Below are positions 24,748 through 38,190 of a DNA stretch of 64,000 bases, piece by piece; within the stretch, counting starts at the first letter, position 1, and each line of letters begins with the position of its first letter. The DNA is from Promethearchaeota archaeon (GTDB lineage: Archaea; Asgardarchaeota; Lokiarchaeia; Sigyniarchaeales; SOKP01): assembly GCA_048939015.1 (NCBI GenBank), contig JBHLPW010000009.1:1-64000 (forward strand), written 5' to 3'. The position numbers and the translations under genes were made by a program. The notes beneath the pieces were generated by a model. That model was not told the DNA's origin, searched no databases, and saw only the letters and a program-made list of their open reading frames with translations.

Positions 24748-26265
24748 ATGTCAGACTTATTTGAAAAGTTGGAAAAGATTGTCTCTGAAAAGTATATTTC
24801 TAATGATATTTATGTGCGTCATGCTTATTCTCGTAATGTAGATATTGTTTTACAGGGAGTTCCTGATATTGTTATAAGACCTAAAGATGCACAAGAAATA
24901 TCAGAAATTCTTAAAGTTGCAAATGAAGAAAATATTTCTGTAATCCCGCGTGGAGCTGGAATATGTGAGTTTGGAGGGAGTAAGCCTATAGGAGATAACG
25001 GAATTGTCTTAGATCTGAAAAGGATGGATAATATATTAAATTTAGATGAAGAAATTCAAGTAGTTACCGTTGAAGCAGGAATTTCTTGGGCCAAATTAAA
25101 CGAATATTTATGTCATTTTGGTCTTTATACAGGATGTATGGGTCCTGGATCTGGAATGAGTGCTTCTATAGGAGGGGGCATCTCACATCATTCTGTGGGT
25201 GGTGGAGGTTGTGCAAAATATGGTGCCTGTACTAACCAATTAGTATCGCTTGAAGTTGTTTTACCCACAGGAGAAATTATTGAAACAGGATCTCAAGCAA
25301 ATAAATTTTCAAAACTACCATTCAATAGATATGGTAATGGTCCAGATTTAGCAGGTTTGTTCTGTGGTGATAATGGAATTTATGGAGTAAAAACAAAAGC
25401 ATCATTACAAGTATTTCCAAAACCCAATTTTGCTGAATATAAAACCTATCAATTACCCAGAAAAGAAAGAGAAGTTTCTGCTAAGATTCTATCTGAAATT
25501 CGACACAAAGGAATTGAAGTTTATGATGCTATGTATATTATGGACCTACTTGTAAGATTTACTACTCAAGAAGGATCTATGCCTATGTGGAATAAATTAA
25601 AAAAGAAAAGAGGACTCATCTTTTATACAATAGAAGCAAATACAGAGATAGAACTGGATGAAAAAGTTAAATTATTAGATAAGATCATGGAAGATAATAA
25701 AACAGAATTTCTAGGAACTGAAATATCTGATGGAAATATAGCTAAATGGCATTATGAGGAACAAGGACATTGGCAATTCTACCACAATTTATGGGGGATA
25801 TTCCCTACAATGCAACCTTTGACAGCTGAATGTTTTTCACCTACCAATCAATATCCCAAAATTTTAGATGATATCGATCAATGGGATTTAGAACATGACG
25901 AAGATATGCGAAAAATATTAAGTGTTGCTGGTAATCGTCCTATTGCTGGAAGTGGACCAATTTTACTAATTGATGGTAATAATGTGGAGATAACTTGTGG
26001 ATTTACCAGCTTTTGGAGTTATTTTAATGGAGAAATACATGATTTTATTGACGATTTAAATCTTTCACTCTGGAAATCATTATTAGAGAGAGTAACTAAA
26101 CATGGGGTTCAATGGTATATGATGGGTGAATTTATGTCTCGTTTAATGGTGGAAATTGGAGCTTATTCAGAGGAATATTATGAATTAATGAAGGCAATTA
26201 AAAAGACTCTTGATCCAAATATGATTTTAAGTAGAGGTAAGTTTAATTTTTGGGGTGATAAGTAA
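24748..26265 (+). CDS. FAD-binding oxidoreductase, GlcD/VAO superfamily
   Basis: PDIVIRP, IPRGAG, LDLKRMDNIL, LEVVLPTGEII, GIYGVKTK, KKTLDPNMIL. Confidence 0.9.
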   Translation: MSDLFEKLEKIVSEKYISNDIYVRHAYSRNVDIVLQGVPDIVIRPKDAQEISEILKVANEENISVIPRGAGICEFGGSKPIGDNGIVLDLKRMDNILNLDEEIQVVTVEAGISWAKLNEYLCHFGLYTGCMGPGSGMSASIGGGISHHSVGGGGCAKYGACTNQLVSLEVVLPTGEIIETGSQANKFSKLPFNRYGNGPDLAGLFCGDNGIYGVKTKASLQVFPKPNFAEYKTYQLPRKEREVSAKILSEIRHKGIEVYDAMYIMDLLVRFTTQEGSMPMWNKLKKKRGLIFYTIEANTEIELDEKVKLLDKIMEDNKTEFLGTEISDGNIAKWHYEEQGHWQFYHNLWGIFPTMQPLTAECFSPTNQYPKILDDIDQWDLEHDEDMRKILSVAGNRPIAGSGPILLIDGNNVEITCGFTSFWSYFNGEIHDFIDDLNLSLWKSLLERVTKHGVQWYMMGEFMSRLMVEIGAYSEEYYELMKAIKKTLDPNMILSRGKFNFWGDK

Positions 26266-27501
26266 ATGAGTGAATTGAAACATTTAAAGGAAGAATGGAA
26301 AGCAGTATTTTCTTGCATGGGTTGTGGGGATTGTGGATATGCTATTAGACCTGCTGTTGGTAGATATTTAACATGTCCTGTTAAGGAAGCAAAAGGAGAA
26401 GAAGCATTTGAGATAAACTTCTCAAGAGGGAGAATGAATGTTCTTAAAAGTCTTTTAGAAGGTCAGATTCCTTTGAGTAAAAAACTTGCTGAATGGGTAT
26501 ACGAATGCTCAGAATGCGGGAGCTGTACTGAAGTTTGTCATATGACGCAAAATGAGAATATTATTCTTCCTACCTGTAATTGGATCGATCATATTAAAGT
26601 TTGGGAAGCCTTGAGAAAAGATTTAATTGAAGCTGGTTTTGCACCACTAGATCGTCATAAAACTATAACCGATTATATGAATGATGACTCTATGAAAAAT
26701 CCTTACGGAGAGGAAAGAACTAAAAAATTCGAATGGATAAATGAGTTCCCTGAAATAAAAGACAAAGCGGAGATAATGTTTTTCGGAGGATGTACAATGC
26801 CGTTGAGACAAATTGATACATTAAAGAATATGATGAAAATTTTAAATGCTGCTGGTCTTGAAATTGCGATGTCCAAGGATGAATGGTGCTGTGGCTCTAT
26901 TGGAATAAGAATCGGGGATGTTTCATCACTAACTGATATGATGAAACATAATATTGAGACTTTTAATAATTTAGGAGCAAAGACTATATTTACTGCTTGT
27001 GCGGGATGCTATAGAACATGGAAAAAAGATTATCCAGAATTAATCGGAGAACCTTTACCATTTGAAGTGAAACATGTAACCGAAGTTTTAATTGAGTTAT
27101 TAAACAGTAATCGAATTCCGTTCAAATATGAAGAAGGCGAGAAAATCAAGGTTACTTATCATGATCCTTGCCATCTCGGGCGACATATGAATTTATACGA
27201 GATCCCTCGCGAAGTCATATCTAAAATCCCTGGTATTGAGCTTGTTGAAATGAAAAGGAACCGTAAAAATGCTTGGTGTTGCGGAGCAGGAGGGGGTTTG
27301 AAAAGCCAATTTTCAGATTTAGCAATTGACATCTCCAAAGAAAGAATTAGAGAAGCGATTGAATCTGAAGCTGATATATTAACAACAAGCTGCCCTTTCT
27401 GCATTGGGAATCTTCGCGATGCATATGATGAAATGGCTCCAGATATACAAAACAGGATAAAACTAATTGATATTATAGATTTGATTGCCTCTAAGATATA
27501 A
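26266..27501 (+). CDS. Fe-S oxidoreductase, HdrD/GlcF-like
   Basis: CMGCGDC...CP, CSECGSCTEVC, EWCCG, ACAGC, YHDPCHLGR, WCCGAGGG, SCPFC; starts immediately after the upstream stop. Confidence 0.9.
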   Translation: MSELKHLKEEWKAVFSCMGCGDCGYAIRPAVGRYLTCPVKEAKGEEAFEINFSRGRMNVLKSLLEGQIPLSKKLAEWVYECSECGSCTEVCHMTQNENIILPTCNWIDHIKVWEALRKDLIEAGFAPLDRHKTITDYMNDDSMKNPYGEERTKKFEWINEFPEIKDKAEIMFFGGCTMPLRQIDTLKNMMKILNAAGLEIAMSKDEWCCGSIGIRIGDVSSLTDMMKHNIETFNNLGAKTIFTACAGCYRTWKKDYPELIGEPLPFEVKHVTEVLIELLNSNRIPFKYEEGEKIKVTYHDPCHLGRHMNLYEIPREVISKIPGIELVEMKRNRKNAWCCGAGGGLKSQFSDLAIDISKERIREAIESEADILTTSCPFCIGNLRDAYDEMAPDIQNRIKLIDIIDLIASKI

Positions 27502-27619: not shown

Positions 27620-28534
27620 ATGGCTACCAAGATATCTATAGTTGGAAAACCCGAAGTTGGAAAAACAACGATTAAGAAGGTGATTCTCGAAGGAGAAGAC
27701 CCTAGTGAGTTGGTAATGTTCCCTCTTGAGGCTACTATAGGAATTCAGTATTCTGTTCATGATTTTATGGATTTAAGAATCAGTTTATTAGACTCTCCTG
27801 GTCAATCATTGCCAATATTATTGGAGGATGAACAGAAACAATTAATGACGTTCGGAGACACAAGTGCCATAATTTATATTTTCGATTATCCTACATGGAT
27901 AGAGAACTCTCAAGATATCATTGATGATATAAAAAAAATCTATGAGATTAGAAACAAATTAGAAGAAGATGCTAAAATTGTTTTGTTTCTTCATAAAATT
28001 GATCTCCTAATTAATAAGAAGATCGGTAGTATGTTAGCATTAATTAGACGGCAAGTTAAGAAACAATTAGATCTACCAGAGGATTTGCCTATTTATTTCA
28101 CTAGTTTACATCCAAATTTGATTTATACTGTATATAACGCGATATCAGATATATTTAGCAATTTTTCAAAAGATTCTTCAAATCTAAAGGAAATCATAAA
28201 AGAATCAATGAGTAATTCATCTAAAACTATAAGCTTTGTTTCAAATCAAGATGATAATCTTATCATTCAAGTGTCTTCACCTGATTTTGACTCAAGTACA
28301 CTCTATTATTTATATGAGAGAGTCTATCAATCTAGTAGATTAGAAGAAGAAGAAATTTCGAAATACAAGTTTATAAATGCAGGCTCTAAAATATTATATA
28401 TGTTAGGAGAAGATATCAGTAAATATCACTCTAATTTTAAAAATTTAATTATATTCTCAGAAATCTTAGAAGAAAAAGATTTGCGGGAGCTTATTACCAA
28501 CATTAGAGAAAAATTGAATCAATATTATAATTAA
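27620..28534 (+). CDS. Rag/Gtr-like small GTPase with C-terminal roadblock/longin-like domain
   Basis: G1 GKPEVGKTT, G2 LEATIG, G3 DSPGQ, G4 HKID, G5 TSL, as in Rag GTPases. Confidence 0.8.
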   Translation: MATKISIVGKPEVGKTTIKKVILEGEDPSELVMFPLEATIGIQYSVHDFMDLRISLLDSPGQSLPILLEDEQKQLMTFGDTSAIIYIFDYPTWIENSQDIIDDIKKIYEIRNKLEEDAKIVLFLHKIDLLINKKIGSMLALIRRQVKKQLDLPEDLPIYFTSLHPNLIYTVYNAISDIFSNFSKDSSNLKEIIKESMSNSSKTISFVSNQDDNLIIQVSSPDFDSSTLYYLYERVYQSSRLEEEEISKYKFINAGSKILYMLGEDISKYHSNFKNLIIFSEILEEKDLRELITNIREKLNQYYN

Positions 28535-28559
28535 TTGATAAATTATTGAGAAAGAAGAT

Positions 28560-29597
28560 ATGCTACGACAAGTCTATATAATTTTAAATAATGATATAAT
28601 ATATCAACGAAATTATGCTAAAGGTTTAGACGACGCTATCTTTGCAAATGTATACGGAAACTTAAAAAAATCAGCATTTGCAAAATTTGCTGAAGAAACA
28701 GCTTCATATGAATTTTTTAAGGTTAAACTTTCGTATATTGTGGAGAAAAATTTATCTTTGATAATATTATTCGTAACTGGATTAGGTGATGATTTTAAGA
28801 ATATCAAACCACAACTAATTAATTTTCAAAAAGAGTTTTTAGATTTCTATGGTGATAATTTAAAAAATGGGAAAAGTTCAATAATCGCTGATGTATTAAA
28901 TCCTATTGTTGATAATATCCATAGAAATTTAAAACCTAAAATTTCAATTGTAGGGTTTTCGGGAGTTGGAAAGACTACAACCACTAAATTAATAAAGTCA
29001 GAGGAAATTCCTATGCAACATATTCCTACGATTACTGGTGAAGTTGCAACTATTAAAATTGGTAAGTTGCACTTTTTTTTATGGGATTTTGCAGGACAAG
29101 ATCAGTTTGACTTTCTTTGGGAGAAATTTATTTTAGGTAGCGATGCGGTACTCTTGATGACTGATTCGACTTTAGCAAATTTAGAAAAAAGTAAGTTTTT
29201 CTTTGAATTGATAAATAGGACAATCCCCTATGCTCGATTAGCAGTAATAGCCAATAAACAAGATCTCCCAGAAGCTATGAGTATCGAAGACATTGAAAGA
29301 TTAATGGGACAAAAAACGTATTCTATGATAGCAATAGACCCAAATAATAGACCAAAAATGATACGTATAATCGCAGATCTTTTAGATATGGATGCAGAAG
29401 TATCACCATTGTTGAGACCTATTTTTGAAAGAGATATTTTAATGGATAAAGTACAAGAAGCCCTAGAACAAGGAGAATTTCATAAAGCTATAGAAATCTT
29501 TGAAGAAATTGCCACTATTTGCTTGGAACTTGGAGATGATTCGCTTTCTATTGAACTTCAAGAGAAAGCTCAAAAAATAAGAAGTGTTTTAGGATGA
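28560..29597 (+). CDS. Longin-like domain, Arf-like small GTPase and helical C-terminus
   Basis: MLRQVYIILNNDIIYQRNY N-terminal domain; GFSGVGKTT, PTIT, WDFAGQ, NKQD. Confidence 0.85.
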   Translation: MLRQVYIILNNDIIYQRNYAKGLDDAIFANVYGNLKKSAFAKFAEETASYEFFKVKLSYIVEKNLSLIILFVTGLGDDFKNIKPQLINFQKEFLDFYGDNLKNGKSSIIADVLNPIVDNIHRNLKPKISIVGFSGVGKTTTTKLIKSEEIPMQHIPTITGEVATIKIGKLHFFLWDFAGQDQFDFLWEKFILGSDAVLLMTDSTLANLEKSKFFFELINRTIPYARLAVIANKQDLPEAMSIEDIERLMGQKTYSMIAIDPNNRPKMIRIIADLLDMDAEVSPLLRPIFERDILMDKVQEALEQGEFHKAIEIFEEIATICLELGDDSLSIELQEKAQKIRSVLG

Positions 29598-31256
29598 TCA
29601 CCACGTTCTAGTTAGATTTTGAAGGAAAGACAAAACTTCCTTTTTTCCTATTGGAACAAAATTAGTACGAAACATTATCTGATTACCTTTATTTGGCAAA
29701 ATGAATTTCATTTCTAAGGTCTCTTGCGTTTCAATAGCTTTTTCTATCTTACTTAACGCCTCTTCGGCAATATATTTTGGCAAAAAATCGTAGATACTTT
29801 TTCCTATATAAGCTTGGGATGAATTTGGTAAATTAAAAATATGCTCAAGTTTTTTATCTAATTTTATGTCTTTGAAAATACCCTCAATTGATATTCTAAA
29901 AATTGAAAAAGGAATATGATTAAGAAGAATAGCATTTTGTGCCTCCGTGTGCTTTAAATCTTCTTGTTGTTGCATTTTTTCTAAAGCTGTACCAATTTCT
30001 AACCCGATTGTAATTATTAATTCCATATCTTCGACAGTTAGAGTATTATTCTCTTTTAATAGCATATTAATACTTCCAATTATCTTGAATTTGGAAAATA
30101 ATGGAATTACTGCCCCAGAAACAAAACTAATTCCCTTAAAATAGTTTTTTAGAATATCCGGGAAGTTTTGGTTGAATAATGCTACTCCTTGTGTGAATAC
30201 AATTTCATAAGGACTTTTATTTACTTCTAAATCATCATTTTGCTCAATAAACGATACGGGAAATCCTTTATGTGCCTTAATTTTCGCAATATTACTTGAT
30301 TTTTCTAATAAATAAATACAGCAGCCTCTTAGATCTAAAAGATCAATGATGCTATCTATGGTTTTTTTCAATAAATCTTTTAAATCATCGGTTTGATTAG
30401 CAATACTTATGAAATTATTTAATGTATCAATTTTTCTAGCATGTTCTTTCAATTTTACTTCTGATATTTGAATATCAGTAAGATCATGAAACAAATATTG
30501 TATAAAAAACTCATCTCCTAGTTGAATTTCATTAATATTAACTTCTAGATATAATATTGTGCCAGAAGACTTCTTTACCCTGGAAATTATAGGTGGTGGT
30601 TGATCTATTAAATGTTTTACCATTTCAGGATCAATTAATCCCTCATCAAATAAATCAAGTTTTAATGCTTTAATCCCGATTATTTCATCCCTCGTCATTT
30701 CAACTAATTTTTCAGCTTCTAAATTCGCATCAACAATTGTACCCAGGTCCCGATTTATTATAAATATGGCGTCTCGGGCTGCTTGAAATAAGGCTTGATA
30801 TCGATGCTCCGCCATTTCTAAAGTCTGAATCACAGGTTGAATAGAGTCAAAATAAGAAAAAAAGAAACCCTTTATATCTTTAAATTTGTTTTCATCTGCT
30901 TTATGATCCTTTGGTTCATAATCAAAAGCTAAGTAAGCATCTTCTAAATTTATAAGATAATTCGCAAAGCCTTCAAGAAGCTTCTTAGCAAGCATTAAAC
31001 TTATTTCTGTCTTTATGTCAGTGATTATTGTTATTAAAAAGCTTTCATAACCTCCTCGAGCAAATTTATTTGGTTGTTTAAAGAATAAATTTGCTGTTTT
31101 AATTTCTTTAAAAATATGAATAAATACTCCTTTTGTAGGGAGTTCTATTAATGAGGGAATATCCTGGATTAAATCATCATCTAATGAATTGGGAGCTTTT
31201 AAGAATATACTAGGTCCAAAAAGAGGATCAAAACGTACAAGCAATAATCCAATCAA
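29598..31256 (-). CDS. uDENN/longin-like, PAS, GAF, PAS sensor protein with no kinase domain
   Basis: MIGLLLVRFDPLFGPSIF; RYQALFQAARDAIFII...DANLEAEKL (PAS); GCCIYLL...AVIPLFSKFKIIGSI (GAF); ILLNHIPFSIFRISIEG (PAS). Confidence 0.75.
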   Translation of the reverse strand: MIGLLLVRFDPLFGPSIFLKAPNSLDDDLIQDIPSLIELPTKGVFIHIFKEIKTANLFFKQPNKFARGGYESFLITIITDIKTEISLMLAKKLLEGFANYLINLEDAYLAFDYEPKDHKADENKFKDIKGFFFSYFDSIQPVIQTLEMAEHRYQALFQAARDAIFIINRDLGTIVDANLEAEKLVEMTRDEIIGIKALKLDLFDEGLIDPEMVKHLIDQPPPIISRVKKSSGTILYLEVNINEIQLGDEFFIQYLFHDLTDIQISEVKLKEHARKIDTLNNFISIANQTDDLKDLLKKTIDSIIDLLDLRGCCIYLLEKSSNIAKIKAHKGFPVSFIEQNDDLEVNKSPYEIVFTQGVALFNQNFPDILKNYFKGISFVSGAVIPLFSKFKIIGSINMLLKENNTLTVEDMELIITIGLEIGTALEKMQQQEDLKHTEAQNAILLNHIPFSIFRISIEGIFKDIKLDKKLEHIFNLPNSSQAYIGKSIYDFLPKYIAEEALSKIEKAIETQETLEMKFILPNKGNQIMFRTNFVPIGKKEVLSFLQNLTRTW

Positions 31257-31410
31257 TAAATCTCACAAATATATTCTGACAGTTAAGATGTATAATTTAT
31301 AATAGAAATATAAAAATCAACTATTATATATTTTTTTTAAACACAGTCGTCAACTTACTTTTATTTTTTCGTAGAGAAATATTCTAATAGGATTGTTTTT
31401 TTTCATTATC

Positions 31411-32091
31411 ATGGAGGATTTGAATATATATTTACAACCAACAGAATTTTTTGATTTTAATAAAAAATCAGTGAGTAAAAAAGCTTTTGAAATTACCAAT
31501 AATCTGATATCAGATAAAGAAAAAGCTATCGCTTTATTTTACTGGGTACGAGATGAGATTAAGTATAATATGCTGACGTATGTACCAAATGTACCTGCTA
31601 ACTTTAAAGCAAGTATCACTTTACGACGAAGAAATGGTTTTTGTGTTTCAAAATCAATTCTTTTATCATCTTTTGCTAGAGCAATTGGAATTCCAGCACG
31701 AATACATCTGGTAGATTTAATTAATCATTTAATTTCACAAAAAGTTATTGATTTTATGGGTACTAATGTAATGTACGTCCATGGTTACAGTGAATTTTAT
31801 TTGAATGGGAAATGGACAAAGTTAACACCTTCTTTTGATCCTCAAACTGCATTAAAAGGTAAATTTCTCCCAATGGTTGAATTTGATGGAGAAAATGATG
31901 CAGTGTTCCCTAGATTCGATAACCAAGGTAATCTTTTTGGAGAATATCTTACTGATAGAGGAGTGCATGCAGATTTACCACTTGAAGATATTGATAAAAT
32001 TTTCGAAGAAAATTATCCTTCATATGCTTTTCATAAAAAAGGACTAAATCCAAAACAAATAAAAGATGAAATTATGACTTATAAGAAATAA
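31411..32091 (+). CDS. Transglutaminase-like domain protein
   Basis: FYWVRDEIKY, GFCVSKS (Cys), RAIGIPAR, HGYSEFYLNGKW (His); ATG at 31411. Confidence 0.85.
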   Translation: MEDLNIYLQPTEFFDFNKKSVSKKAFEITNNLISDKEKAIALFYWVRDEIKYNMLTYVPNVPANFKASITLRRRNGFCVSKSILLSSFARAIGIPARIHLVDLINHLISQKVIDFMGTNVMYVHGYSEFYLNGKWTKLTPSFDPQTALKGKFLPMVEFDGENDAVFPRFDNQGNLFGEYLTDRGVHADLPLEDIDKIFEENYPSYAFHKKGLNPKQIKDEIMTYKK

Positions 32092-32156
32092 AAAATAAAT
32101 TCTATAACCCTCTTTTATATATAATTGATTATCTTTACCTTCTAAGGTTTATCATT

Positions 32157-32837
32157 ATGGAAGATTTTAATATATATCTACAAGCTACGCAATATTTTGA
32201 TTTTAATAAAAAATTTGTGAGTAAAAAAGCTATTGAGATTACTAATGGTTTAAAAACTGATGAAGAAATGGCAATTGCATTGTTTTATTGGGTAAGAGAC
32301 GAGGTTAAGTATAATGCTTTTTCATATTACCCAAGAATTAAAGCAAATCTCAAAGCTTCAGTTACATTAAGACGAAAAAATGGATTTTGTATGTCTAAAT
32401 CCACATTATTATCAACTTTTGCAAGAGCTGTTGGAATACCTGCCCGTATTCATATGGTAGATATCATTAATCATAAAATATCCCAAAGACTTGTTAATTT
32501 AATGGGTACTAAGGCTTTTCATTGTCATGCTTATAGTGAGATTTATTTAAATAAGAAATGGGTAAAAGCAGCACCAATTTTTGATAGAAAAACTTGCATA
32601 AAAGGAAATTTTTTTCCTATGATTGAATTCAACGGAGTTAACGATGCTTTATTTGCCCCATTTGATGCAGAAGGGAATAAATTTGTAGAGTATATAGGAG
32701 ATTGGGGTATTTACGCAGATGTACCACAAGAGAAAATCCATCAGATATTTTGTGAGAAATACCCTCACTGGTATCCTAATCCAGGTTCAGATTTAATGAG
32801 ACCTATGAAAAGGGAACCATTATCTTTGAACAAATAA
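32157..32837 (+). CDS. Transglutaminase-like domain protein (tandem paralog)
   Basis: GFCMSKS, RAVGIPAR, HAYSEIYLNKKW; highly similar to the upstream gene. Confidence 0.85.
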   Translation: MEDFNIYLQATQYFDFNKKFVSKKAIEITNGLKTDEEMAIALFYWVRDEVKYNAFSYYPRIKANLKASVTLRRKNGFCMSKSTLLSTFARAVGIPARIHMVDIINHKISQRLVNLMGTKAFHCHAYSEIYLNKKWVKAAPIFDRKTCIKGNFFPMIEFNGVNDALFAPFDAEGNKFVEYIGDWGIYADVPQEKIHQIFCEKYPHWYPNPGSDLMRPMKREPLSLNK

Positions 32838-35432: not shown

Positions 35433-36356
35433 ATGCCAAGAGCAATAATATTATATGAAATTGATCCTTCATTTGGCCCCAATATAATCGCAGAATATTA
35501 CTTGAAACAAGCTGAAAAAATTCCACAATCGGTATTAAAGGAATTTTCAGAAAAACATAGTAAAAAGGGATTAGTAGATGTAACTGTGCGATCGGAAAAT
35601 GACCGATTTTATTCTAGTAAAATTAATGCTGAATCTATTGACAAAGACAATCTTTTCATTGGCTCAATTTTACAAGAAGGGGAAGACCTGATTTCTTTGA
35701 AAAGCTTCGTTGAAAATTTAAAGGATAAAATTCTACAAAATTTTTCTAGTGATAGAAAAATGATGAATGATTTTCTACAAAATGCCTTAAAATCCATTTT
35801 GGGGTTAATCCAAAAGTTACAAGAACCAAAAATTATCAAAGAGACTATTAATGATAGAACAAAAGCAATGCTTGATGAAGGTAAACTAACTGAAGCACGT
35901 GAATTGATAGATTTAGGTGAAGAAATACCTATAAAACTTGCTGAGGAAGTAAAAATTGCTGAGCAATTTGTAAAAGATGAATTTTATAAAAAAGCTAAAA
36001 AAAGTTTTTTAAAAGCTGCCGAATTAGCGACATCAATACAAGAAGACGAAATTGCTTCTTTCTTAGAAAACAAGGGAGAACAAGTTGGCTTGTTTCCTGA
36101 TTTAATAAAAGAAAAAGAGAATCTAAATAAAGAAATATTGAAAATTTCTAATGATTTAGACAGTATTAAATTAAATAAATATGGCAGTTTTATTGAACCG
36201 GTTGAAAGGTTAATTGAGATTTCGCAAATCTTTGAAGAAAATGAACAAATTGAAATTCTGACAAAATTAAAAAGCGATGCTCAAAGGGCTTCTCGATTAG
36301 CAAAAGATTTAATAAATCTAGATGAAAAAATAAGAGAACATATAAAAAAAATTTAA
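35433..36356 (+). CDS. uDENN/longin-like N-terminal domain with helical (TPR/coiled-coil-like) region
   Basis: MPRAIILYEIDPSFGPNIIAEY parallels the N-terminus of 29598-31256. Confidence 0.55.
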   Translation: MPRAIILYEIDPSFGPNIIAEYYLKQAEKIPQSVLKEFSEKHSKKGLVDVTVRSENDRFYSSKINAESIDKDNLFIGSILQEGEDLISLKSFVENLKDKILQNFSSDRKMMNDFLQNALKSILGLIQKLQEPKIIKETINDRTKAMLDEGKLTEARELIDLGEEIPIKLAEEVKIAEQFVKDEFYKKAKKSFLKAAELATSIQEDEIASFLENKGEQVGLFPDLIKEKENLNKEILKISNDLDSIKLNKYGSFIEPVERLIEISQIFEENEQIEILTKLKSDAQRASRLAKDLINLDEKIREHIKKI

Positions 36357-36366
36357 ATTTCTAAAT

Positions 36367-38190
36367 TTAATCCGTTGTTTCTTCATTAGACGGAGATTCC
36401 TCTACAGGAGGTTGGTATTCTCCAATATCCTTGAAAATTAATTTACAAATCTCCCAACCTTTTTCTGTGGGATATTTCAGAGCATTTGCAATTAATTCTC
36501 CTCCAATTTCATTATCCAGTTCCACCTTATAAATTTCAGGTGTATTATTCAACATAGATTCGAATTTTGCCCCACTTGACCCCGTAGGTACAATTAAAAT
36601 TCCAAAATCAATTGCTTTCTCGGTAATTGCATCCTTTAATCGTTTTGCAGCATAGTAACCCGCTACTCCCGCACTTCTATCGAAAGTTTTAATCGAAGGG
36701 ATCTCTAAACCATACTTTTTACCATCAGCTTGAATTAAGGCTGCCAGAGTTTGTGCCCTTTTTCCAAGTTTAAATTTATATTCCATCTGAGTCTTGAACT
36801 TTTTGCCTTTTTCTTCTCCAACCATATTTATACACTTTAAAGTGGCCCCTGCGACAGATTGAGGATTTACATCGATAGAATATTCTTCCTCAGCTAGAAT
36901 ATCTTCAATTGTTTTCTTAATAACTTCACGTGGCTTAGAAAAATCAATTACTTCTTCCTCTTCAATTTCTGCTTTGGGTTTCGCTGTTGCAACAATATCT
37001 GCCCCAACTTCCAATAATTGATCAACGGTCATCTCTTCCATAACAACCTTATCTATAAATCTTCTGCAAAGTTTAATGGAATTCCTTGGATTACCTTGGG
37101 TTTTTTCATATATCATTTCAATTAATTTCTCATTTAATGGGAATAAGGGATACAATGGTGGATTTAAATTATTATCTTCCCAGAAAGCTTCCATAGATTT
37201 CGAGAAATATATTTTTAAATCATTTAGGCTAAATGGTTTCAATTCTTGTTCAGGTTCCATTCTTGATCTGAGTGGTGCGTCTGCAATTTCTATAATGCGG
37301 GGCCAAATTTCTTTTAAAACTGCAATTGTAATTACAAGTCCTTTAACTTCATTATATAATCTTTTTAGGATTTCTAAAAACTTTCTTTCAGCAGATTCTC
37401 CCAACATACGATAAGGTGACTCAAGTTCATCAAAATAAAGTATAAGAACACTATCTAAGTTCTCTGTTATGATTTTAATCATTGCGAGACACACATCATC
37501 TTCCTCTACAACCGAGTTTATTCCTAATTCATTAAGTTCTTCATCTTCTAGATCTTCACCAAGAAGCCATCTTTCTGCTAGCGCTTTTTTATTTTTATCT
37601 AATTGGTATGTTACTAATGCTTTAACACAATCAGCAAATACTCCTGGAAATTCTCTTATACCTTTTTGAATAACCTCATCGAGTTTAGGCTTTTGAAAAA
37701 TACCTTTTTTCATACCACCCCATCGTCTAAGTAATTTCTCAGAAACAATATCTAACAATTCTGCTCCAAGCTCCTCGATTATACAGGTATAAACATGAAG
37801 TAAAACACGAATACTTGCTGGAGGACTTGGAACGTAAACAATAGTCCAATCTGCGGAAGTAGCAAATTTACTGGCATCGATTTCTTCGGATTCATCTGCG
37901 CTTTCCAATTTTTTCCTATTTTCTCGTTCCTTATCTTTGAAAGAATGATAAGCATGAGTTTTCCCAGTACCCGCTGATCCTAAGATCGGAATCAGACGAG
38001 AGGATCTATCTCTAAAAGTCTGTTGAACAAGTCTATATACCTCTCGATCTATATAACTTCGGGGTCTTGATATATCAACTTTATCGGGAATATCTCCTCG
38101 TGAAACAAAAGTAGAAAAGGGCATTATTGGAGCTTCCCGTAAGACATCTAAATACATTTCCTTGTCATCATCGCTCAATTCAGAATACAT
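36367..38190 (-). CDS. P-loop (AAA+-like) ATPase with C-terminal alpha/beta domain
   Basis: Walker A GSAGTGKT, Walker B LYFDELE, LRSR, GNPR. Confidence 0.8.
   Translation of the reverse strand: MYSELSDDDKEMYLDVLREAPIMPFSTFVSRGDIPDKVDISRPRSYIDREVYRLVQQTFRDRSSRLIPILGSAGTGKTHAYHSFKDKERENRKKLESADESEEIDASKFATSADWTIVYVPSPPASIRVLLHVYTCIIEELGAELLDIVSEKLLRRWGGMKKGIFQKPKLDEVIQKGIREFPGVFADCVKALVTYQLDKNKKALAERWLLGEDLEDEELNELGINSVVEEDDVCLAMIKIITENLDSVLILYFDELESPYRMLGESAERKFLEILKRLYNEVKGLVITIAVLKEIWPRIIEIADAPLRSRMEPEQELKPFSLNDLKIYFSKSMEAFWEDNNLNPPLYPLFPLNEKLIEMIYEKTQGNPRNSIKLCRRFIDKVVMEEMTVDQLLEVGADIVATAKPKAEIEEEEVIDFSKPREVIKKTIEDILAEEEYSIDVNPQSVAGATLKCINMVGEEKGKKFKTQMEYKFKLGKRAQTLAALIQADGKKYGLEIPSIKTFDRSAGVAGYYAAKRLKDAITEKAIDFGILIVPTGSSGAKFESMLNNTPEIYKVELDNEIGGELIANALKYPTEKGWEICKLIFKDIGEYQPPVEESPSNEETTD

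Follow-up and report, generated by a model that had tools for sequence, protein, structure and literature searches.

With dozens of small GTPases and longins per Asgard archaeal genome, which longin could act as the off-switch of which GTPase? A three-gene locus in a Promethearchaeota archaeon names one such pair in a testable form. The locus lies within a 64,000-nucleotide stretch of DNA (hereafter, the window) from contig JBHLPW010000009.1, labelled C70 here, of a 4.86-Mb assembly that is 95% complete; homologues of its proteins are named as Lokiarchaeia or Promethearchaeota and include Loki_b32 and Lokiarchaeum GC14_75. Open reading frames (ORFs) on the plus strand define a Rag-like GTPase of 304 residues (gene 1, 27620-28534) and, 25 nucleotides downstream as an earlier note on this DNA had described, an Arf-like GTPase of 345 residues (gene 2, 28560-29597). 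A soluble sensor of 552 residues with a TTG start (gene 3, 29598-31256, minus strand) is delimited by its ORF, its Pfam matches and an alignment of orthologs. Judged by sequence comparison, this trio is a real, conserved and inherited module built of published parts, and we propose that it works as a ligand-gated longin GTPase-activating protein (GAP) acting on one of its two GTPases, a proposal to which we give an even chance.

Longins with GAP activity have been defined by a Gly-Pro (GP) motif and an arginine, R147 being the catalytic arginine of SMCR8, and longins with both features occur in Asgard archaea; whether their partners are ArfR or Rag GTPases was posed and left open (PMC12290439). 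GTPases seldom share operons with regulators, and using gene order to assign a regulator to its GTPase has been described as difficult (PMC10933270). The trio comprises three soluble proteins that are co-inherited over deep divergence, with exactly one Arf-class and one Rag-class candidate among them, and the partner question therefore becomes testable at this locus. Its domain types are already published. Liu et al. (bioRxiv 10.1101/2020.10.19.343400, Fig. 5c) present many Asgard fusions of NPRL2-like longins to two-component domains, which, like gene 3, combine an NPRL2/FLCN-type longin with prokaryotic sensor domains. In the part of that study considered here, no GTPase partner or conserved neighbourhood is named for these fusions, whereas gene 3 is kinase-less and travels with a fixed Rag and Arf pair. 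No paper describing the trio was found in the literature searched.

The two GTPases and the longin sensor

Gene 1 matches the Pfam family PF04670 (Gtr1_RagA) with an E-value of 5e-20 and 72 bits, against a cut-off of 22. Its G domain (residues ~1-180) contains the G1 motif GKPEVGKT, the G3 motif DSPGQ, the G4 motif HKID, which is of the HKxD type, and the G5 motif TSL; the Rag-type motifs that the earlier note had listed (LEATIG, DSPGQ, HKID and TSL) are all present in gene 1. Residues D58, G61, Q62 (the switch-II glutamine), H125, K126, D128, T161 and S162 are invariant across 71 homologues. An AlphaFold2 model of the protein (predicted local distance difference test, pLDDT, 86) is matched by Foldseek over its full length to yeast Gtr1, human RagA and the Asgard protein LokiRagO (8YL2), with template modelling (TM) scores of 0.63-0.71. 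Because the match covers the whole length, the extra C-terminal domain noticed earlier (residues ~184-303) can be identified in the model as roadblock-type; the protein has no N-terminal longin. By this model gene 1 is a full-length Rag fold, with a G domain and a roadblock-type tail. Its nearest Lokiarchaeial Rag-like relatives are the longin-Rag-roadblock family, whose N-terminal domain it lacks, and it is 39% identical to a paralogue on contig C48 of the same genome. The tree from which these relationships were read contains Lokiarchaeial proteins only, with no eukaryotic sequences. Gene 1 shares its G domain, roadblock-type tail, HKxD motif and full-length structural match with the eukaryotic Rag/Gtr proteins and with Asgard LokiRagO (8YL2), LokiRagM (8ZLA/9M28) and the MK-D1 pair. 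It differs from them in that its neighbour is not a second Rag, in its 14-22% identity to the solved Rags, and in that no TOR-type (target of rapamycin) kinase was found.

Gene 2 belongs to a different class, as it matches the Pfam family PF00025 (Arf) over residues 122-253 (E 1e-18), and its best matches among PDB sequences are Arf1 (E 2e-16) and the Asgard protein 8OUN. The motifs WDFAGQ (W175-Q180, with Q180 as the switch-II glutamine) and NKQD (N232-D235) are invariant in 93 homologues, and full-length paralogues at ~52-57% identity occur in 24 of the 24 genus genomes of a first sample. The defining feature of Asgard ArfR proteins is a free N-terminal amphipathic helix (bioRxiv 10.1101/2024.02.28.582541). 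Gene 2 resembles them in its Arf-type G domain, with the solved ArfR 8OUN among its top matches, but a domain of ~120 residues stands at the position of the free helix in all 93 aligned homologues, and the C-terminus carries, in place of a roadblock tail, an additional short helical hairpin with a weak match to TPR_8. The N-terminal domain, which the earlier note had read as longin-like, gave only sub-threshold matches to two longin families, SRP-alpha_N (E 0.03) and Fuz_longin_1 (E 0.11); it showed no similarity to the profile of the sensor longin, its own profile found nothing significant among PDB sequences, and the ESM Atlas returned no usable match. It is plausibly a longin, and we treat it as a putative one. 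GTPase-roadblock and longin-GTPase architectures have been described in Asgard archaea, together with one MK-D1 Rag pair in an operon (PMC10933270).

The longin-PAS-GAF-PAS architecture that had been read for gene 3 is borne out by Pfam matches to PAS, GAF_2 and PAS_4 and, for the longin (residues 1-150; 30807-31256, minus strand), by a predicted model and a fold search; the Pfam scan found no kinase and no DNA-binding domain, and the longin is its sole predicted output. The model of the longin (pLDDT 91) was compared with 48,161 representative chains using VIA-align, and the highest-ranking chain is FLCN (6NZD_H; Z 13.5, root mean square deviation 2.4, 135 residues aligned), followed by a Loki longin (8YQG, Z 12.8), NPRL2 (8FW5_B, Z 12.5) and Npr2 (Z 11.6). 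FNIP2 scores lower (Z 9.5), and the non-GAP longins reach Z values of at most 9.5. Foldseek ranks GATOR1 chains first (E 6e-6). Within the longin, R67 of the sequence A66-R67-G68 is kept in 114 of 119 diverse family members, and G14 and P15 are kept in 113. In a profile built from these diverse members (A6), at an E-value of 0.5, R67 aligns with R147 of SMCR8 and with R164 of FLCN, which we take to be the arginine finger of FLCN, and G14-P15 aligns with G68-P69 of SMCR8. Profile searches with two other longin alignments (A1 and A3) against PDB sequences returned nothing significant. Taken with the fold comparison, these data support the assignment of the sensor longin to the FLCN/NPRL2/SMCR8 GAP type in the model, with R67 as the candidate arginine finger. 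The longin fold, the GP motif and an arginine at the finger position are shared with FLCN-FNIP, the NPRL2-NPRL3 subunits of GATOR1, C9orf72-SMCR8 and the GP-motif longins of Asgard archaea. Unlike the eukaryotic complexes, the sensor has no C-terminal DENN-type domain and carries PAS-GAF-PAS in that place, and its partner longin is only a candidate. The ortholog alignment and PDB sequence search gave no clue to a ligand of the PAS and GAF domains, and the PAS-GAF-PAS part has no match among PDB sequences.

The earlier note had taken the locus for a nutrient-sensing module analogous to Rag signalling. Of this analogy, the co-inherited unit, the Rag fold and the FLCN/NPRL2/SMCR8-type longin find support; a RagA/RagC-type heterodimer of genes 1 and 2, in the eukaryotic sense, does not, because gene 2 is Arf-like, ends in a hairpin and lacks a roadblock tail. 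A proto-Rag pathway that senses amino acids through such a heterodimer is accordingly hard to credit and in our view highly improbable, even with a whole Rag fold in gene 1 and a regulator that resembles FLCN and NPRL2. In addition to the class of gene 2, it is opposed by the lack of any match to the phosphatidylinositol 3-/4-kinase family (PI3/PI4-kinase, TOR-type; PF00454) in this 95%-complete genome, by the lack of ligand evidence, and by the standing of gene 1 as one of 21 Gtr1_RagA matches, with a clade confined to one Lokiarchaeial family among the families searched. Rag GTPases are abundant in Asgard archaea, for which Liu et al. likewise report no TOR-type kinase (10.1101/2020.10.19.343400). 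Lokiarchaeia are not the lineage closest to eukaryotes, and the trio would therefore serve as a parallel model and not as an ancestor of the Rag pathway.

Inheritance of the trio

Adjacency alone is weak evidence for a module, because the same genome contains ~59 small-GTPase-like ORFs, 21 Gtr1_RagA matches and 10 matches to the longin family of the sensor. Conservation of the gene order, which the earlier note had proposed to check, was surveyed in 50 genomes of the genus, each at least 80% complete. Orthologues of the trio lie side by side in 35 of them, all three genes are absent from 12, and three are ambiguous, owing to a contig end, a scaffold gap and, in the third, a 100-residue sensor remnant without GTPases. 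The adjacency is thus conserved, and paralogous trios occur elsewhere. Synteny within the genus means little by itself, because the entire neighbourhood is syntenic, and we rejected it as stand-alone evidence.

The absences are more informative. A flanking transglutaminase-like gene is present in 48 of the 50 genomes, as against the 12 from which the trio is missing, and contiguous empty sites, in which one flank continues directly into the other and none of the three genes is left, were found in eight genomes (nine, counting one with a nearby scaffold gap). On trees of the flanking genes, of which that of the larger gene set was built with FastTree, the empty sites occupy ~5 distinct positions, at three of which the sister genome carries the trio (support 0.999-1.0). 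This pattern suggests about five independent losses of the whole trio. In none of the 50 genomes does the orthologous pair stand here without the sensor, other neighbouring genes have been gained and lost independently, and the Rag and Arf genes have often been copied jointly in local duplications. It is the co-inheritance data, not the adjacency, that exceed chance.

The association extends beyond the genus. Two other genera of the family have the trio, complete in one (L222) and with the sensor cut by a contig end in the other (L243). Paralogous trios lie in other neighbourhoods (L075, L091 and L092), with identities of 38-45% for the Rag, 51-55% for the Arf and 39-48% for the longin; their sensors vary in domains and PAS content, and in L075 all three genes are on one strand. 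The trio-associated Rags form one clade (100/100), as do the trio-associated longins (98/91), a clade that includes two sensors without a pair seen beside them, and the Rag, Arf and longin trees each divide into the same main-trio and paralogous-trio groups.

Several observations weigh against a three-protein unit centred on a GAP. The sensor gene is on the strand opposite to the pair and is therefore not co-transcribed with it here. The syntenic neighbourhood includes unrelated genes, and block deletion can remove adjacent genes that have no functional tie, and an oxidoreductase pair upstream shows frequent turnover. Four other genera, as well as paralogues in this genus, have the Rag and Arf pair without a neighbouring sensor, mostly among histidine kinase genes; the pair is, to judge from this distribution, older and wider than the trio. 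Conversely, two genomes of another genus (G093 and G112) have, in the syntenic position but with no pair beside it, a 443-residue longin-PAS-GAF orthologue (93% mutual identity); they hold only more distant Arf-like paralogues, and a gene-1-like Rag was not found in the one that is 98% complete. The arginine is a trait of the whole longin family, most checked members of which have no GTPase neighbour, and the alignment to FLCN and SMCR8 is not significant alone. Most of these points would fit a true unit of the Rag and Arf pair only, with the sensor as a long-standing neighbour that serves other GTPases and with joint losses and duplications as block events. We consider this quite unlikely, since the ~5 independent losses take all three genes, no genus genome retains the orthologous pair at the site without the sensor, and paralogous trios have been maintained in different surroundings, in one case with a re-oriented sensor.

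A candidate longin GAP and its possible substrate

The mechanism that we infer from the folds, motifs and co-inheritance involves binding, GAP activity and ligand gating. The genes for the Rag-like and Arf-like GTPases would form a two-gene unit of expression, their products probably acting as a pair, while the third protein would be a cytosolic one-component regulator whose PAS-GAF-PAS part binds small molecules or relays a conformational signal. The state of the PAS and GAF domains would control the access of the FLCN/SMCR8-type longin to its partner GTPase, where Arg67 would serve as the arginine finger and, with the switch-II glutamine of the GTPase, speed GTP hydrolysis and turn the GTPase off. 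The switch-II glutamine, which is needed for GAP-stimulated hydrolysis, is kept in both GTPases as the invariant Q62 and Q180. Eukaryotic longin GAPs need a second longin; here the N-terminal domain of gene 2 may supply it, and a protein encoded at 35433-36356 is another candidate. The catalytic step would be like that of FLCN-FNIP, GATOR1 and C9orf72-SMCR8, with a prokaryotic sensor in the place of the DENN domain, and the system would not be a RagA/C-TORC1 (TOR complex 1) pathway. A prediction of the complex of gene 1, gene 2, the sensor longin and two GTP molecules scored 0.11 against a mark of 0.32 and was counted neither way.

A functional module need not contain a GAP. The longin could instead be a guanine nucleotide exchange factor (GEF), a scaffold or an effector, with the sensor under the control of the GTPases or with no more than a dimerisation of the longins. 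Most longin and roadblock platforms are GEFs or scaffolds (PMC10933270), co-inheritance gives no direction, and loci with the pair alone are surrounded by genes for histidine kinases and response regulators, so that the GTPases could feed two-component signalling. Nevertheless, the combination of GP motif and arginine has been presented as a specific mark of GAP longins (PMC12290439), R67 persists across the diverse family members, and the closest folds are catalytic subunits, and we judge an activity other than GAP to be unlikely.

If the sensor longin is a GAP, we slightly favour the Rag-like protein over the Arf-like one as its substrate. The Rag-like protein is a possible substrate because of the FLCN-like fold and because a second arginine longin occurs among Rag-like genes (on C48 and in relatives); the Arf-like protein is one because paralogues of the longin are fused to an Arf domain and because the sensor has been retained in genomes that yielded Arf-like paralogues only. 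The fullest form of the proposal, a self-contained, ligand-gated arginine-finger GAP in which the Rag-like protein is the substrate and the Arf-like protein lends the second longin, is rather unlikely in our estimation. GAP activity would place longin GAP chemistry before eukaryotes and under the direct control of prokaryotic sensor domains, and in its fullest form the module would carry out, in a prokaryote, the step that FLCN and GATOR1 perform on Rag GTPases, with a direct connection to PAS/GAF sensing.

Neighbouring genes and related loci

Genes 2 and 3 meet at their stop codons, with no spacer, in the sequence TGATCA (29595-29600), just as the earlier note had it. The spacing at this junction ranges among orthologues from an 18-nucleotide overlap to a gap of ~30 nucleotides, and we therefore attach no function to the abutting stops. 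A scan for sigma-70 promoters and terminators, a model that is unsuited to an archaeon, gave results at chance level.

Upstream of gene 1 lies the oxidoreductase pair mentioned above, a flavin adenine dinucleotide (FAD) oxidase and a CCG iron-sulphur (Fe-S) oxidoreductase (24748-27501). Its identity to close relatives is 73-75%, compared with 85-95% for other genes there, and several genomes carry it in duplicate or have lost it, a pattern that suggests frequent replacement. On the other side, two tandem transglutaminase-like genes (31393-32837) are represented by one to three copies at the site in 48 of the 50 genus genomes. The plus-strand gene at 35433-36356 encodes a 307-residue protein with a GP-type motif (DPSFGP) at its start, no ARG, and a helical part thereafter, and is a possible non-catalytic longin by its sequence. 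In every case it faces an AAA ATPase gene (36367-38190). We excluded it from the module because it is retained in genomes that have lost the trio.

Sensor orthologues in another genus (L218:6148-7479 and L219:2788-4122), without the C-terminal PAS domain and with no GTPase pair, retain both GP and ARG. A metagenome contig (L153) has a tandemly expanded locus, in which no fewer than five Rag copies and four Arf copies, together with pieces of the sensor, are packed into 11 kb. A fusion of ~950 residues (L052:3233-6106, L053:8845-11706 and L229) joins an arginine longin, an Arf G domain, PAS domains and an HATPase; in L052 and L053 it directly follows one or two genes for 314-residue Gtr1_RagA proteins, and in those of L052 a histidine replaces the switch-II glutamine. 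By domain content, this longin-Arf-PAS histidine kinase behind a Gtr1_RagA gene, with a longin closely paralogous to that of the sensor, brings the components of the trio together in a different layout.

A second cluster, in the genome of the window itself (C48:61-6639) and in relatives (L054, L064, L065, L066 and L086), encodes a 227-residue arginine-longin protein, whose L086 orthologue matches the Pfam family Folliculin (E 2e-4). Its other products are a Rag-like protein whose C-terminus carries a long extension, a histidine kinase with GAF and PAS domains, a protein of longin-Rag-roadblock architecture and one more Rag-like protein. The genes for the last two adjoin in all loci of this type, and a Rag-Rag heterodimer is more plausible for their products than for those of genes 1 and 2.

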